Shown here: positions 24,520 through 36,718 of the stretch, piece by piece
Position numbering within the stretch: position 1 is the stretch's first letter
Layout of the letters: the number at the start of each line of letters is the position of its first letter
IMG/VR virus record: IMGVR_UViG_3300007754_000002
Length of the DNA stretch: 36,718 nt
Source of the DNA: an uncultured virus (IMG/VR IMGVR_UViG_3300007754_000002)
Taxonomy: Duplodnaviria > Heunggongvirae > Uroviricota > Caudoviricetes
Strand: one strand, 5' to 3'
Notes under the pieces: generated by a model
Database searches by the model: none
Seen by the model: the letters and a program-made list of their open reading frames with translations, nothing else
Told to the model about the DNA's origin: nothing
Translations under genes and position numbers: made by a program

Positions 24520-24550
24520 ATAAACGTATACGAGTGGGCCCTGATAATTC

Positions 24551-29210: not shown

Positions 29211-29284
29211 TAGGGAGAGGGGGGCTTGAACCCCCGACCTATCGCTTATAAGACGAACGCTCTCACCAACTGAGCTATCTCCCC
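29211..29284 (-). tRNA. tRNA-Ile(TAT)
   Basis: Cloverleaf, loop CT-TAT-AA, A73. Confidence 0.88.
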
Positions 29285-30558
29285 TCAAGGTCTCCCAGGA
29301 CTTGAAACAGCTTCTCTGCGACGACCTTCGTGGTGTGAGGCTCCAGGGCGTAGCTGAACCGAATCCACCGGTCGGCGTACCTGCTGAAGAAGGACCCGGG
29401 GACGATCGCGATCCCGTGCTCCTCCGCCAGCCACAACCCCAGCTCGGCTGAAGTCTGGAAGTCTGCCTTGTCCAGACAATCGCCCACCTCAAGGAAGGCG
29501 TAGTAGCCCTGCCCCATGATGTGTTTGTGGCCTCGGGCGACCAGGAAATCCTTCAGGTATCTCCGGCTCTTGGAGATGGGCTCCAAGATACCTCGACAGG
29601 CCCGGTGATACCCCATCTGGTAAGCGGCCATAGCCACCGCCATTCCGTAGAAGCTTGGGATCACTCCGTGGGAAGCCCGACGCTTCGTGAAGCCCACCAC
29701 TTTCACCGAAGCGATCAGGTGAGCGTTCCTGATGTTGGAGCCTCCGAGGGACTTTGTCACTCCGTCGAGGATGATCAGCCGTTCTCTCTCGTCTGGGGGG
29801 AACATCGCGAAGAAGTCGTTCAGGTCGTAGGGCTCCTCGTCCGTCACGTAGTGGTAGATCCAGTCAAACAGGACGAAGGGGATGCCTTCTGCGATGGCGG
29901 CCTTTGCGATGGCAGCTTGATCGACCAGCGAGGTCACACGACCTGTAGGATTATCCGGGCTGGTTACCACCACCCCTGCGATTCGTCGCCCCTGGCTGGC
30001 TGCGAAGGCTGAGCACTCCCGGATACTGTCCGGGGTCAAGGCCCAGGCGTCCTTCTCTTCTCCAGGGGCCAGGAGAACGTTCGCTCCCATAAGGTAGGGG
30101 CCCCAATTGTAGGAGACCCAAGGTACACGAGGGAGGACGATGAGGTCTCCGGTTCTTCCGTGCCCCAGGTGGAGCATCGCCGCGTATGCCTTCAAGAGAG
30201 CATCTCGGCCCCCAAGGGCTGAGATAACGTTCTGAGGGCCGCCGTAGCGGGAATCCAGCTTCCAGTAGTCTTCGACGACTGACCGCCAGAATGCAGGGAC
30301 TCCGTGGGGCTTCCCGTATGCGGTCCCCCGGTCTCTCTGAAGCCGACAGGCGGCTTCCAGAATCTCGGGCGGGACACCGGGTAGGCTCGCTCCTCCGTCG
30401 CCCTGACAGGCATCGTAGAGCCGGGCTTCCGGGTGCTTCCGGTGGAAGCCCATGAGGGCTTCCCGGAGCCCGAACATCTGATTCTGGGGGATAGGGTGGA
30501 GGGTCTGGAGATCAGAGAGAGGGTGCTCTGTACCCTCAGGGACCACGATGGTCGGCAT
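29275..30558 (-). CDS. PLP-dependent aminotransferase class I/II; stop codon inside tRNA-Ile
   Basis: SPDNPTG, FDWIY, GVTKS, IVPGSFF, IRFSYA; AGGAGG RBS. Confidence 0.9.
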   Translation of the reverse strand: MPTIVVPEGTEHPLSDLQTLHPIPQNQMFGLREALMGFHRKHPEARLYDACQGDGGASLPGVPPEILEAACRLQRDRGTAYGKPHGVPAFWRSVVEDYWKLDSRYGGPQNVISALGGRDALLKAYAAMLHLGHGRTGDLIVLPRVPWVSYNWGPYLMGANVLLAPGEEKDAWALTPDSIRECSAFAASQGRRIAGVVVTSPDNPTGRVTSLVDQAAIAKAAIAEGIPFVLFDWIYHYVTDEEPYDLNDFFAMFPPDERERLIILDGVTKSLGGSNIRNAHLIASVKVVGFTKRRASHGVIPSFYGMAVAMAAYQMGYHRACRGILEPISKSRRYLKDFLVARGHKHIMGQGYYAFLEVGDCLDKADFQTSAELGLWLAEEHGIAIVPGSFFSRYADRWIRFSYALEPHTTKVVAEKLFQVLGDLEGR

Positions 30559-30671: not shown

Positions 30672-30921
30672 CGGCTCGGTCTGGGAGGAGTCGAACCCCC
30701 GCCCTCCGATTTTCCAAACGCTAGCAAGCTATCGGCGCTCTGCCCACTGAGCTACAGCCGAGCAGTCCCGCGGGCTTTGAGAATGGGCACTCCCTGGTTT
30801 CCGCGAAGCGTACTAAGGAATCGGTAGCTTGCTAGCGTCTTCCCGAAGGAAGACCCCTATTGAAACCCGGGGGCTCGGGCTGATCCGTTTCTTCTCCGTT
30901 TCTCCAGGGCAGGTCCCCGGC
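30672..30921 (-). ncRNA. ~250-nt RNA with 3' tRNA-like domain (copy 2)
   Basis: D arm GCTC/GAGC, T-loop TTCGACT, enlarged loop TAGCTTGCTAGCGTTT complementary to AGACGCTAGCAAGCTA (30840-30825). Confidence 0.7.
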
Positions 30922-32892: not shown

Positions 32893-33032
32893 TGGAGGCA
32901 GCGGTAGGAATCGAACCTACTTATGCTTGTGGGCTCTTCCGAGGATCCCCTGGGAGGGGGAGGAGATGGGGAGCCGGGAGGCGTTAACCTCCGGGTGATG
33001 ATCCCGGTGCTCATCCATTGAGCTTCACTGCC
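32893..33032 (-). ncRNA. giant-insert tRNA-like RNA A (loop ATCATCA)
   Basis: Acceptor GGCAGTG/CGCTGCC-T-CCA, D and T arms, ~70-nt insert ending CCCACAAGCATAA. Confidence 0.75.
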
Positions 33033-33035
33033 ATA

Positions 33036-33177
33036 TGGAGCCGTTGGTAGGAATCGAACCTACTAATTTGCTTGTGGGCTAGCTGGGAGGATCTCCCGAA
33101 GGAGAGGAGGCCAACAGCCGGAGGTCGCAAGACCTCCACCTTAAAAGGGTGGTGCTCAACCATTGAGCTTCAACGGC
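33036..33177 (-). ncRNA. giant-insert tRNA-like RNA B (Lys-type loop CT-TTT-AA)
   Basis: Acceptor GCCGTTG/CAACGGC-T-CCA, insert ending CCCACAAGCAAATTA. Confidence 0.75.
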
Positions 33178-33393: not shown

Positions 33394-33539
33394 CCGGGGA
33401 GGTAGGGATCGAACCTACACCTCTTATGCTTGTGGGATAATCGCGGGCCTCCTTGGAACAGGAGGGAGTGCGGTAGCCTGATCGCGGTTTTTCAACCTGG
33501 AATTAAGTTCCAGTGCTCTGCCAATTGAGCTACTCCCCG
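33394..33539 (-). ncRNA. giant-insert tRNA-like RNA C (loop ACTTAAT)
   Basis: Acceptor CGGGGAG/CTCCCCG, D and T arms, insert ending CCCACAAGCATAAG. Confidence 0.75.
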
Positions 33540-33543
33540 GTAA

Positions 33544-33618
33544 TGGTACACCCGGCAGGACTTGAACCTGCAACCTCTCGGTTCGTAGCCGAGAACTCTT
33601 CCATTGAGCTACGGGTGC
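33544..33618 (-). tRNA. tRNA-Arg(ACG)
   Basis: Loop CT-ACG-AA, ACCA end. Confidence 0.92.
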
Positions 33619-33713
33619 CCAGGATCAGAGGGCAGCTCCCGAAGGAGGCTGCACCTCGTCACCTTGCTGCCCTCGCTTGGGTGGCGAGGGCTCTTGTCGA
33701 ATTCATATTCAAG

Positions 33714-33726
33714 CTGTCAAAGACGG
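33714..33726 (-). promoter_or_regulatory. boxA-like antitermination site
   Basis: CCGTCTTTGACAG near the head of the RNA array; same TCTTTGACA core as upstream of tmRNA. Confidence 0.5.
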
Positions 33727-33759
33727 TCGCAAGACGTTGTACGACGAAGTCGCGACCAA

Positions 33760-33831
33760 TACACCCGGCAGGATTTGAACCTGCGACCCCAGCCTTCGGA
33801 GGGCTGTGCTCTTCCACTGAGCTACGAGTGT
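33760..33831 (-). tRNA. tRNA-Arg(CCG)
   Basis: Loop CT-CCG-AA. Confidence 0.9.
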
Positions 33832-33850
33832 CTGGGGGCCTCTAAACGCC

Positions 33851-33885
33851 GAAACCCCGGTCTGCTTGGTGCTGACCGGGGTTTC
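33851..33885 (-). terminator. attenuator terminator hairpin
   Basis: 12-bp stem GAAACCCCGGTC/GACCGGGGTTTC; competing GACCGGGG (33934-33927) inside the leader ORF. Confidence 0.65.
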
Positions 33886-33911
33886 TGGCTGAGTGCCTAT
33901 GGTGGTAGGAC

Positions 33912-34040
33912 TTACCTCACTTCCATCCCCGGTCGTGCGGGACCGATCCGCTGATCATTCCCTCGCTTGACCACACAGGTCATCGCGGCGGCGGGCTTCG
34001 CCGTGGTCGCGGTGACGGGGATGGTGGTCAGGGAGGACAT
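33912..34040 (-). CDS. putative leader peptide (42 aa)
   Basis: MSSLTTIPVTATTAKPAAAMTCVVKRGNDQRIGPARPGMEVR, ending 26 nt before the terminator hairpin. Confidence 0.6.
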   Translation of the reverse strand: MSSLTTIPVTATTAKPAAAMTCVVKRGNDQRIGPARPGMEVR

Positions 34041-34124
34041 TGAAGAGCGGTTCCTGTTGTCGGGCGACTGACGCCCTCGGTGTGCTCTATCCTTACACCA
34101 GCCCTACCTGCCCCGCAACCCCTC

Positions 34125-34199
34125 TTGTCGCGTTTTTTCCGGCGACCTCCCGTATCCCTCTGGATTCACGGGATCTTTTTCTCAGGTTGTCGCGTTTTT
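34125..34199. repeat. 13-bp direct repeat TTGTCGCGTTTTT (34125-34137, 34187-34199)
   Basis: Two identical copies 62 bp apart, upstream of the leader ORF. Confidence 0.6.
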
Positions 34200-34208
34200 G
34201 GCGCGTTC

Positions 34209-34823
34209 TCATTTGCCGGCGAAGGGGTCGATGACCTCCGCGGTGCCGGAGGAAAACTCCTGCTGGGTGTGCGCGGTGACGATGACGGGGTAGTCGAGGA
34301 CGGTCAGGATGCCGTCGCCGTCGAGGTCCGAGGGCGGGGCGAGCTGGCCCTTGACCTCACGGGGGAAATCCCAGAAGCCTGCGAACATAGCGTTGACCGC
34401 AGTCTGGGTGTAGGTCGCGTAGGACCGCTGGTGGTCGGTCATCACCGCCTGGGCGGTCGTCCACTCGTTGAGGCGAGCTTCCATGATGCTCTGGACCTTC
34501 TTGAAGAGATCCGGGGTGGGGTTCGGGTTCTGCTCCGTGATCCACTGCATCATGGCTTGGGAGCCGCCGTCGCCGTAGCGACCCTCCTGGGCCGCCTGGA
34601 AGATCTCGTTGAAGCTCTCCCGCTCGGCGTTGGCGACGCTGGCCGCTCCGGTGATCTGCTGGTAGGCGTTGTCCCGGACGTTCATCATGTTCTTCCAGGC
34701 CGCCTTCGCCCCTTCCTCCGCCGCGATGGCGTTGTCGTGGACGCTGAGGGCCTTTCCGAAGATGCCGAATCCGACGACGGCGACAGAACCCAGGAAAGCC
34801 AGGACGATGATCTTGCTGTTCAT
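34209..34823 (-). CDS. LemA-like membrane-anchored protein
   Basis: N-terminal TM, helical body, MMQWITEQNPN, FAGFWDFP. Confidence 0.7.
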   Translation of the reverse strand: MNSKIIVLAFLGSVAVVGFGIFGKALSVHDNAIAAEEGAKAAWKNMMNVRDNAYQQITGAASVANAERESFNEIFQAAQEGRYGDGGSQAMMQWITEQNPNPTPDLFKKVQSIMEARLNEWTTAQAVMTDHQRSYATYTQTAVNAMFAGFWDFPREVKGQLAPPSDLDGDGILTVLDYPVIVTAHTQQEFSSGTAEVIDPFAGK

Positions 34824-34859
34824 TTTTGAGAGTCCCCTTATGGGAGGTTGGACGGACGG

Positions 34860-35912
34860 CTAGAAGCGACGGCGAGAGGAGCCGCCGAAGAGATCCTTCT
34901 CGATGGCGACGAAGGAGTAGATGAAGCTGGCGGCGATGAGCAGGAACGCCTCCAGAACCAGGAACCACGTAGGGGGCTTCGCAGCCTTGAAGAGGTACTC
35001 CAGATCAGACATGGGATCCCTGTCGTACTGCTGGAGGACTACGGGCTCCATCCAGCCCAGGATGCTGGCGTGGTCGGTGACCGAGAACCCCTGCTTGGGG
35101 AGGTCGTCCCGTACCGTGATCTCCAGATCTTCGATCGAGGAGAAACTGAACGCCCTCGCCCAGGCGATATCGCTTCCGCTGGTACCCAGAACCAGGGTGA
35201 GCTGATTCTTCGCGCCGTAGAGCCAGTCCGCAGCGATCTTCTCCGTGAAGAGGGGATCTCGATGGTCAGTCTTCACGACGACCAGGGTGATCTGCTTCTT
35301 GGCTCCCCAATCCGCGTTCCACTCCATGAGGGCGGCGTTCCACGCCTTGCTCAGCCCGATCGCGTTGTTGACCCGGTAGTGGTCGTGGATCTGCGGACGC
35401 TTGGGGCTGGCCCCCTGCATCCCCGGAGGGGGCCTCGGGATCAGGATGCTGTTGGGGTCCGCGTAGAGGTAGTTCTTGTACGAGTGAGCAACCGCGGCGG
35501 CCTCACCTACCTCGGAGTTGACCCACCGCTTCGGGTCCCTGGAGGACCCCTCACAGGTCCAGGGCTTCTTGGTGTCTCCCGTGGAGAACTTCCAGCCCCA
35601 CCAGTAGTCCATGCTGTGATCGCACTCTTCATGCGAGCGAGTGCAGTTTCCGTCGTCATCCCGGGCGTCGCAGACCGTTCGACAGTGGCAGCAGCTCTCG
35701 GTGCCGCTGATCTTCTTCGTGATCCTGCCGTTCCAGTGCTCCGTGTCCGTGACAGAGAGGTGCTTCGCCGCGTGGAAGCTACCTACTGCCAGGAGCACAC
35801 CGACCAACGCCCCGACGATGTACTCCTCGGAGGTGAACCGCTTCCCGTTGGTAAACGCCATAAACCCCATCACGACAATGGGAATCAGGCACATGGCTAT
35901 CTGGATGAGCAT
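34860..35912 (-). CDS. multi-TM membrane protein (partner of the LemA-like gene)
   Basis: Two N-terminal TMs, Cys-rich loop SCCHCRTVC, C-terminal TM; AGGAG RBS. Confidence 0.75.
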   Translation of the reverse strand: MLIQIAMCLIPIVVMGFMAFTNGKRFTSEEYIVGALVGVLLAVGSFHAAKHLSVTDTEHWNGRITKKISGTESCCHCRTVCDARDDDGNCTRSHEECDHSMDYWWGWKFSTGDTKKPWTCEGSSRDPKRWVNSEVGEAAAVAHSYKNYLYADPNSILIPRPPPGMQGASPKRPQIHDHYRVNNAIGLSKAWNAALMEWNADWGAKKQITLVVVKTDHRDPLFTEKIAADWLYGAKNQLTLVLGTSGSDIAWARAFSFSSIEDLEITVRDDLPKQGFSVTDHASILGWMEPVVLQQYDRDPMSDLEYLFKAAKPPTWFLVLEAFLLIAASFIYSFVAIEKDLFGGSSRRRF

Positions 35913-35932
35913 CTCAGGTTCTCCTGGGTTCG

Positions 35933-35959
35933 TATACGAACAGGCCGCGAATTATTCCG
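35933..35959 (-). promoter_or_regulatory. phage promoter-like motif (CGGAAT-N15-CGTATA)
   Basis: Recurring motif upstream of ORF 35912. Confidence 0.55.
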
Positions 35960-36718
35960 TCCAAGGTTCGTTTTCCAACAGAATCGCTACCTGCTTGCTG
36001 GGCAGGTGGATCAGGACTCTGAAGGAGCAGGTGGGGGTCCTATAGATCCCCTGGAGGAGGCCGGTCTTGGCTTGAATCACCTGAGCGTTCTTAGCCGGGT
36101 CTGCGTCTCCGAAGTCCCCTTGGATCGCCCGATGAACGCAGTAGGCAAAGAAGCCCTTGTCAATACTCAGCTCCCGGGTCACTTCTTGGGCCCGGGGGGA
36201 TACACGGAAAGTGTTGGGGAGCCTCATGTCCACGATCTTGTTTCTGGAGACCCGAGTCTGACCAAACCCGAATCCGGTGGCTTCCTTGGAGGGTGGCTTC
36301 ATCAGGTCCACAGCGGTGATCCACTTAGGGCGAACGACCCCCCGATAGAACCAATGGAATCGGGCCCACTCTTCTCCGCCGTCAGCTTCGATCAAGCCCG
36401 CGAGCCAGTGCCGATTTACTCGCCTAGGCGCCCAGGTGAGCCAGTGATGAAGCTTTCGTCGAGCGGAGGTCGGGATGCGGACAGTCAACCGGGCTTCGGC
36501 CTTGTCGCAATGGAGCGGGGAGACTTCCACGCCTTCGACGTGCGTGATTCCTTGAATCCGGTAGCTATGAGTCATCCAATGCTGGTTGGCATAGACCGGA
36601 TCCTCGGTCAGCCAGGGAGCCTCGATCTTCCCGCGAACAGAGATAGCCACGTCGCCCCGGTTGATACCCTGGGTCAGGATGCTGGGGACACGAGACTTCT
36701 TCGTGAAGTGGTAGAGCA
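35952..36718 (-). CDS. putative ADP-ribosyltransferase-fold protein (partial, starts beyond window)
   Basis: Frame stays open to the window end: LYHFTKKSRVPSILTQGINRGDV...PWLTEDP...WFYRGVVRPKWI. Confidence 0.55.
   Translation of the reverse strand, partial: LYHFTKKSRVPSILTQGINRGDVAISVRGKIEAPWLTEDPVYANQHWMTHSYRIQGITHVEGVEVSPLHCDKAEARLTVRIPTSARRKLHHWLTWAPRRVNRHWLAGLIEADGGEEWARFHWFYRGVVRPKWITAVDLMKPPSKEATGFGFGQTRVSRNKIVDMRLPNTFRVSPRAQEVTRELSIDKGFFAYCVHRAIQGDFGDADPAKNAQVIQAKTGLLQGIYRTPTCSFRVLIHLPSKQVAILLENEPWTE

Follow-up and report, generated by a model that had tools for sequence, protein, structure and literature searches.

An uncultured marine phage with a possible ribosome-dependent attenuator ahead of its first tRNA cluster

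We examined a stretch of 36,718 nucleotides (nt), hereafter the window, from an uncultured virus of the Caudoviricetes (IMG/VR record IMGVR_UViG_3300007754_000002). It belongs to a large marine phage, has a G+C content of about 0.60 and carries all of its convincing genes on the minus strand. Our focus is the region at positions 33,760 to 34,199. On the minus strand, a gene for a LemA-like virion structural protein (G+C content at third codon positions 0.90) is followed there by a 168-nt spacer with no terminator within it, an open reading frame (ORF) of 42 codons that we call ORF42, a strong hairpin, and tRNA-Arg(CCG), the first gene of a tRNA cluster (Table 1). Judging from the sequence and its predicted folds, it seems quite possible, if short of probable, that this region is a ribosome-dependent transcription attenuator at the junction of a virion-protein operon and the first tRNA cluster.

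The elements named in the original prediction are borne out by direct reading of the sequence: the 42-codon ORF at 34040-33912, the 12-bp hairpin at 33885-33851 before the first tRNA, and, inside the last codons of the ORF, an 8-mer, GACCGGGG, that is complementary to the hairpin's 5' arm. A perfect stem of 12 bp, an 11-nt loop and two additional inner G-C pairs make up the hairpin (pair probabilities 0.99-1.0), which stands 19 nt before tRNA-Arg(CCG) and is one of 14 window loci whose perfect stems reach at least 10 bp. The 8-mer occupies 33934-33927 (codons 36-38), has the sequence of the hairpin 3' arm, and can pair with CCCCGGTC at 33881-33874. We also found a further element, segment 1, near the beginning of ORF42, which pairs with segment 2 (the stretch that includes the 8-mer) in the minimum-energy fold. 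The calculated strengths of the three helices are -20.5 kcal/mol for 1:2, -18.7 kcal/mol for 2:3 (8 bp), and -22.5 kcal/mol for 3:4, the hairpin itself, and they are mutually exclusive alternatives.

The original prediction called for folding of these alternative structures, and in silico the helices switch in the order of an attenuator. In folds of a lengthening transcript, helix 1:2 is present while the 3' end lies between 33916 and 33880, helix 2:3 replaces it with a probability of 1.0 for ends between 33872 and 33860, and from 33856 on helices 1:2 and 3:4 are found together. When segment 1 is masked, as it would be by a stalled ribosome, 2:3 is present in the nascent transcript; when the mask is placed as for a ribosome at the stop codon, 3:4 forms. 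In these computed folds helix 2:3 is an antiterminator-type helix, made with the 5' arm of the putative terminator and excluding it. The position of the stop codon (33914-33912) is also suitable, in that a footprint of about 15 nt on either side of it covers 33929-33923; the ORF42 stop lies 9 nt after segment 2, and therefore a terminating ribosome would mask part of that segment.

In order to judge whether such pairing is expected by chance, we compared it with shuffled sequences. The 2:3 duplex energy was reached by 1.6% of 2000 dinucleotide shuffles, and in 3.4% of them the 195 upstream nt contained a match of at least 8 nt to the 5' arm. Folding the whole of the truncated transcript (400 shuffles) gave a helix of at least 8 bp on the arm in 0.5% and a comparable energy gain in 1%. 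No comparable complement to the arm was found at the other tRNA-leading hairpins, where the longest were 4 and 5 nt.

A second line of evidence comes from the codons of ORF42. The phage anticodon set was taken as 22, namely 20 species called by ARAGORN plus His GUG and Lys UUU from Rfam tRNA matches. Codons cognate to these anticodons make up 34 of the 42 in ORF42, vs a fraction of 0.655 in 22 phage genes (binomial p 0.022); single phage genes range from 0.56 to 0.68 with the 20-anticodon set. This level is reached by 3.0% of 5606 windows taken from real genes and by 1.9% of 159 six-frame ORFs of 35-60 codons, and with the 20 ARAGORN anticodons alone the shares are 1.2% for real-gene windows and 0.4% for random ORFs. 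ORF42 engages 20 of the 22 anticodon species, as do 2.5% of windows. The ORF antisense to it, described below, is not enriched in such codons (22 of 34). The amino acid usage of ORF42 is ordinary, with 16 of the 20 amino acids present (69% of windows have at least 16), which rules out a leader that uses all 20. The competing helix and the codon match are two independent, model-predicted features, each unusual at about the 1-5% level. By analogy, the anatomy of the region appears to fit an attenuator of the trp/thr type, or of the whiB7 type as described in PMC10274678, better than expected.

The codon score of ORF42, 0.222 per codon, is that of the median real gene, and only 1 of 3020 random stop-free stretches attains it; in synonymous choice, codons 1-24 stand at the 98th percentile of real genes. 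Its length is not remarkable, because 73 ORFs of at least 30 amino acids occur in 6.7 kb. It is called as a gene on 6 public contigs. A search of 5.8 billion clusters for homologues returned only ORF42 itself, and a search of 1.84 billion representatives returned only three low-complexity matches to long proteins; Pfam gave nothing for it (the sole small ORF scanned there), and PHROGs gave nothing meaningful for it or for the antisense plus-strand ORF. Since ORF42 lacks a homologue although a relative of a neighbouring gene exists at 74% identity, it is not a conserved protein; this lack fits either a leader peptide or no gene at all. From its sequence we infer that ORF42 may be translated.

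In the mechanism that we propose, transcription would originate upstream, the phage promoter at about 35938 being its probable source, and ORF42 would be translated. A ribosome that reaches the stop at 33912 would cover GACCGGGGAUGG in segment 2, the hairpin at 33885-33851 would form, and part of the polymerases would stop before the tRNAs. A ribosome slowed within the opening third of the ORF (codons 5-13, TTIPVTATTA, which overlie segment 1) would free segment 2 to pair with the newly made 5' arm of the hairpin, and transcription would continue into the tRNA genes. With no ribosome on the leader, 1:2 and 3:4 would form and transcription would stop. Because most ORF42 codons are read by phage tRNAs, such a loop would raise tRNA output when these are scarce and lower it when they are plentiful. 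The coupling and its physiological signal are read from this anatomy, and we advance the following only tentatively: the phage may gauge its own tRNA supply by means of a 42-codon test gene, so that slow decoding (through loss or cleavage of host tRNAs, or late-gene demand) would open the tRNA genes and ample tRNA would shut them, while boxA-like words farther downstream might keep Rho off the long untranslated transcripts. That the array is induced by anticodon nucleases, toxins or antibiotics, as originally proposed, is pure conjecture.

Table 1. Features of the leader region and related features elsewhere in the window.
Feature	Position	Strand	Description and basis
Phage promoter motif, copy nearest upstream	35930..35964	-	G.AA.TTTC ... 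TCGTATAC; position weight matrix (PWM) score 19.7
350-amino-acid gene, phrog_2087	34860..35912	-	PHROGs E 2.4e-55
LemA-like virion structural protein gene (204 amino acids), phrog_1383	34209..34823	-	E 3.1e-33
Spacer with two exact AAAAACGCGACAA boxes	34125..34199	-	boxes 34199-34187 and 34137-34125
ORF42, 42 codons, MSSLTTIPVTATTAKPAAAMTCVVKRGNDQRIGPARPGMEVR	33912..34040	-	ATG at 34040, TAA 33914-33912
Antisense ORF, 34 codons, MTTQVIAAAGFAVVAVTGMVVREDIEERFLLSGD	33967..34071	+	wobble phase common with ORF42
Segment 1, CCATCCCCGTC (also read as CCAUCCCCGUC)	34014..34024	-	codons 6-9, inside TTIPVTATTA; pairs with segment 2
Segment 2, GACCGGGGATGG	33923..33934	-	codons 36-40; pairs with segment 1 or segment 3
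Segment 3, hairpin 5' arm GAAACCCCGGTC	33874..33885	-	sequence read, duplex
Segment 4, hairpin 3' arm GACCGGGGTTTC, then tail GGCGTTTAGA	33851..33862	-	sequence read, fold
Extended irregular stem, 23 bp in all	33837..33897	-	minimum free energy -37.5 kcal/mol, z -7.48; stability reached by none of 200 shuffles
tRNA-Arg(CCG), first of an eight-gene tRNA cluster running to 32170	33760..33831	-	ARAGORN; Rfam 69.4 bits
boxA-like TCTTTGACA	33715..33723	-	spacer after first tRNA
Three paralogous tRNA genes, 137-146 nt	33394-33539, 33039-33177, 32896-33032	-	Rfam 45, 54, 40 bits; not called by ARAGORN
tmRNA, tag ANNNNNFRAAA	20318-20713	-	ARAGORN; Rfam 79 bits
Strong promoter-motif sites (high ends of 35-nt sites)	2343, 5627, 7279, 10483, 12009, 12641, 15320, 20277, 24558, 35964	-	PWM
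Weaker promoter-motif sites	250, 28949	-	PWM; 28949 just before tRNA-Cys

A number of observations weigh against the attenuator. A single locus cannot establish an attenuator, here in an uncultured phage and with a weak terminator, and the evidence for a leader switch consists of one sequence together with folding programs and computer tests. The predicted 2:3 pairing is unusual, not overwhelming, its p-values being moderate and ranging from 0.005 to 0.05 according to the null used, and a partner as strong as that in 1:2 arises in 10% of shuffles (p 0.10), which is not beyond chance. The match of ORF42 to the tRNAs of the first cluster alone is not significant (p 0.10), and the codon-match test followed several others and calls for some discount for multiple looks. 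Neither is the threonine cluster within TTIPVTATTA significant (5 of 9; p 0.04-0.09). ORF42 has a weak Shine-Dalgarno sequence, an AGGA 11 nt ahead of the ATG, and part of it is base-paired. Furthermore, its coding-like signal is confined to 33967-34040 (the first 24 codons), the part common to the antisense ORF: G or C is found at 23 of 24 wobble positions there vs 11 of 19 in the last third of ORF42, and codons 26-42 (the last 17) are unadapted, at 0.02 per codon.

Termination at the hairpin is the weakest link of the attenuator reading. The interpretation in the original prediction is partly supported in silico, by the competing helices, their switching order, the placement of the stop codon and the codon enrichment of ORF42. 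The terminator tail is weak: the UUUC, with its three U's, lies inside the stem and forms its base, after which comes GGCGUUUAG, and only 3 of the first 8 tail bases are T. The original prediction had already described this U-tract as weak, correctly. The consensus terminator scan, with a tail criterion of 5 T in 8, did not list the hairpin at 33885-33851, and the same scan listed two minus-strand terminators in the RNA-gene region, 20310-20282 (after the tmRNA) and 25445-25424. One of the two strongest alternatives, which we regard as not likely but deserving weight, is an unregulated, leaky intrinsic terminator that ends the virion-protein operon. A fixed share of polymerases would stop there, setting the ratio of mRNA to tRNA precursor; ORF42 would be a small last cistron or untranslated, and the 8-nt repeat would be due to chance. 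The stem is strong and G+C-rich, its GAAA...UUUC base is also that of the canonical terminator after the tmRNA, and it is the first strong stem past the LemA-like gene, 27 nt after the ORF42 stop. In favour of chance as the origin of the repeat, 2 of 29 other hairpin/strand cases in the window also show such a match, and the window's own word frequencies give an expectation of 0.053 for it. However, the weak and unlisted tail counts against this explanation as well, and it leaves unexplained both the ordered three-state switching (p 0.005-0.01) and the codon match of ORF42.

The other alternative, with a similarly limited claim to belief, is that the stem serves in processing or stabilisation. 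Long irregular stems are substrates of RNase III, and intercistronic stem-loops that process or stabilise transcripts are known from the RNase III sites of T7 early RNA and from protective hairpins at 3' ends. The hairpin is the core of a 23-bp stem that ends 5 nt before the tRNA, and on the predicted fold it looks more like a processing or stabilising stem than the attenuator reading would have it. Like the known examples, it is a long irregular stem at a gene junction, here beside an RNase P site. The stem would be cut in the manner of RNase III, or would guard the 3' end of the upstream mRNA after RNase P frees the first tRNA, and polymerases would read through freely. Among the 70-nt stretches ahead of the 28 RNA genes, that of the first tRNA is the most structured by a wide margin (the next has a z of -3.5); once the hairpin is left out, the leader keeps a moderate degree of structure (z -2.8). 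The leader of tRNA-Gln forms a similarly long stem that lacks a U run (z -6.1), a 10-bp hairpin lies 9 nt before tRNA-Ala, other intergenic hairpins without U runs are found 31-41 nt past stop codons, and canonical terminators are few in the phage, all of which speaks for this explanation. On the other hand, it leaves the alternative pairing and the codon match without a role; the hairpin differs from the stems before tRNA-Gln and tRNA-Ala in having U residues at its 3' base, and from intercistronic processing stem-loops both in this and in having a competing upstream partner. No match to the T-box or any other Rfam family was found in 33832-34208 at E values up to 1.

The phage has a promoter-like motif of its own, G.AA.TTTC followed after a gap of about 10 nt by TCGTATAC/A, which occurs in ten strong copies, all on the gene strand and mostly 10-30 nt ahead of start codons; the core CGTATAM occurs 13 times vs 1.12 expected. 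The PWM was built from these ten minus-strand sites, so their scores of at least 18.5 follow by construction; beyond the training sites, the next minus-strand score is 11.6 and the plus-strand maximum is 5.2. The site at 35930-35964 likely starts the transcription unit that enters the leader. The PWM scan found no copy of the motif between 35964 and 28949, and neither a sigma-70-like nor a phage-type promoter was found in the 168-nt spacer. Therefore, the first tRNA cluster would be expressed only by transcription past the hairpin, unless another class of promoter exists. A sole route past the hairpin fits an attenuator or a harmless stem, and does not fit an efficient terminator.

The spacer itself carries two exact AAAAACGCGACAA boxes, vs 0.36 matches expected (5 of 100 shuffles reach 2); they lie 62 nt apart and have the appearance of short T-rich hairpins when the plus strand is read.

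The confinement of the coding signal raises a further alternative, which we consider very improbable, that it belongs to the 34-codon ORF on the plus strand (33967-34071), encoding a small membrane peptide antisense to the tRNA leader, and that ORF42 is merely its shadow. The peptide consists of a hydrophobic helix and an acidic tail, a composition resembling that of a membrane helix as read from the sequence, and its codon statistics are good (0.30 per codon). A codon-model test of strand slightly favours plus, with 3.6-4.5% of true sense windows scoring as low as ORF42, which is a further point against the attenuator. The high wobble G+C spans the overlap only, the part of the ORF upstream of the ORF42 ATG having 8 of 11. 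Nevertheless, the plus strand carries no phage promoter motif, nor is any convincing gene located there, the 22 training genes included; the ORF begins with TTG and has no Shine-Dalgarno sequence, the synonymous score favours the minus frame (10.8 vs 6.1), and there is no family match, the best being a holin PHROG at an E of 0.36.

Control based on Rho is equally far-fetched: the C-rich, G-poor start of the leader (C-rich stretch 34040-33966) would be a Rho loading site masked by translation of ORF42, and TCTTTGACA words would recruit NusB/S10 to shield the tRNA and tmRNA transcripts, yet this stretch is strongly base-paired in the folds computed. The probability that remains falls to a region with no function.

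The original prediction had placed a boxA-like sequence at 33726-33714 and had assigned it a part in gating the array; the word is there, as 9 nt inside that 13-nt frame (33723-33715), and it lies 37 nt past the first tRNA and not before the array, so that it cannot gate the array together with the leader. An identical copy of TCTTTGACA is found at 20726-20718, 4 nt before the 5' end of the tmRNA. These two exact copies are both on the RNA-gene strand, vs 0.17 expected (1 of 100 shuffles has at least 2). The degenerate core TCTTTRAMA shows milder enrichment, with 2 matches vs 0.41 expected and 9 of 100 shuffles reaching 2, which tells against the Rho-based explanation. The boxA consensus is given as UGCUCUUUAACA for E. 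coli and AUGAUCUUUGAAA for B. subtilis, and boxA elements are also reported to precede CRISPR operons, in PMC13753749. With respect to that account, UCUUUGACA fits the core common to the two consensus sequences, a point in favour of a Nus-type role, and the phage words sit in long untranslated transcripts like the boxA elements of rrn and CRISPR operons. They are unlike the boxA described there in their positions, after the first tRNA and just before the tmRNA, and in their flanks, which differ from the 12-nt E. coli consensus. The copy at 20.7 kb has 3 mismatches to that consensus and the copy at 33.7 kb has 4, which also tells against the Rho-based explanation. The word as a -35 box was ruled out, with no -10 element at 16-18 nt in either copy. 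From their sequence and setting it is doubtful that the boxA-like words act against Rho on long untranslated RNA.

The RNA genes that the leader would control belong to a large set. Between 18.8 and 33.8 kb ARAGORN found 22 tRNA genes and a tmRNA is present, and Rfam adds five further tRNA matches, three of which have a 65-75-nt insertion. In these three paralogous tRNAs the insertion lies in the variable region and ends in CCCACAAGCA; as anticodons they have UUA (C at position 33; such a tRNA would decode the UAA stop codon), UUU (Lys), and CAU. Another tRNA match, at 30676-30760 on the minus strand (38 bits), has 20 nt in place of the 7-nt anticodon loop, that is, a 13-nt insertion. The terminator past the tmRNA (20310-20282) is the clearest intrinsic one in the window. 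A class I/II aminotransferase gene (29275-30558, minus strand; Pfam E 9e-25) lies among the tRNA genes, its last 10 nt overlapping tRNA-Ile(UAU). The leader of tRNA-Gln (24532-24391, minus strand), which comes after a phage promoter, folds into one long stem with an 11-bp perfect core (24459-24433); tRNA-Gln and tRNA-Asp come next. We considered whether it has the same design as the ORF42 leader and rejected this: a possible 20-codon frame (ATG at 24521) ends at the foot of the stem, but phage tRNAs read only 11 of the 20 (counted by eye), and there is neither a U run nor a complement to the arm.

In order to find related leaders we searched several collections. Megablast of 33500-34900 against 50,697 phage records gave no match. 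By tblastn, proteins of the phage match jumbo and T4-like phages at less than 60% identity, and the genes adjoining the leader likewise gave only matches below 60% identity; the 350-amino-acid gene (phrog_2087) has matches in 477 large-phage records, each below that level. In Xanthomonas phage X1 the pair of neighbouring genes is kept, without an annotated tRNA after it. In IMG/VR a single relative was found, at 27% identity and with no tRNA close by, and further IMG/VR scans (with a tRNA pattern, with P0002, and with the 350-amino-acid protein) gave no match. A T-arm pattern was abandoned as a route to relatives, having matched 7 phage tRNA arrays, all unrelated, and two metagenome scans for relatives were empty. 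Relatives were found as proteins, P0002 (of a neighbouring gene) at 74% identity and eight more at 33-48%. The leader is identical to that of the window in 3 of the 4 public read runs examined (X1, X5, X6, X7) out of 7. Run X5 also contains a second, diverged strain from the same waters, whose identity to the window is about 83-86% in two pieces of the LemA-like gene (34221-34595). The diverged contig covers the LemA-like gene only and is then unlike the window toward the leader, and therefore the leader is more diverged than the LemA-like gene.

Leader-peptide transcription attenuators are a feature of enterobacterial amino-acid operons of the trp, his, thr and ilv type. Like these, the putative phage attenuator combines a short leader ORF with four segments that have 1:2, 2:3 and 3:4 as alternatives, the terminator helix being the strongest; about 60 nt separate the stop of the ORF from the downstream 3' end of the terminator, and a cluster of one amino acid (Thr) falls over segment 1. 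It is unlike them in that a phage tRNA cluster, not biosynthetic genes, lies downstream, that the ORF is longer and its stop comes after segment 2 and not before it, that the U-tract is weak, and that the codon signal is a broad match to a tRNA set and not a run of a single codon. Another related system is the mycobacterial whiB7 model. In PMC10274678, antitermination is attributed to ribosomes that stall in a longer uORF, the composition of the uORF decides what is sensed, and whiB7 is activated by knock-down of tRNAs and tRNA synthetases. The phage leader, as proposed, would likewise be a general sensor of translation stress; it differs from whiB7, an actinobacterial transcription factor whose case is backed by genetics in that source, in that it would control tRNAs. 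Literature searches found no leader-peptide attenuation before tRNA genes among the matches listed.

Large phages carry many tRNA genes, and little is known about their timing and dosing. If the attenuator reading is true, the product controlled by leader-peptide attenuation would here be the sensed molecule itself. Phages of this kind would sense translation capacity directly and feed back on the supply of tRNA, and this would bear on how phages handle host codon bias and tRNA-cleaving defences.

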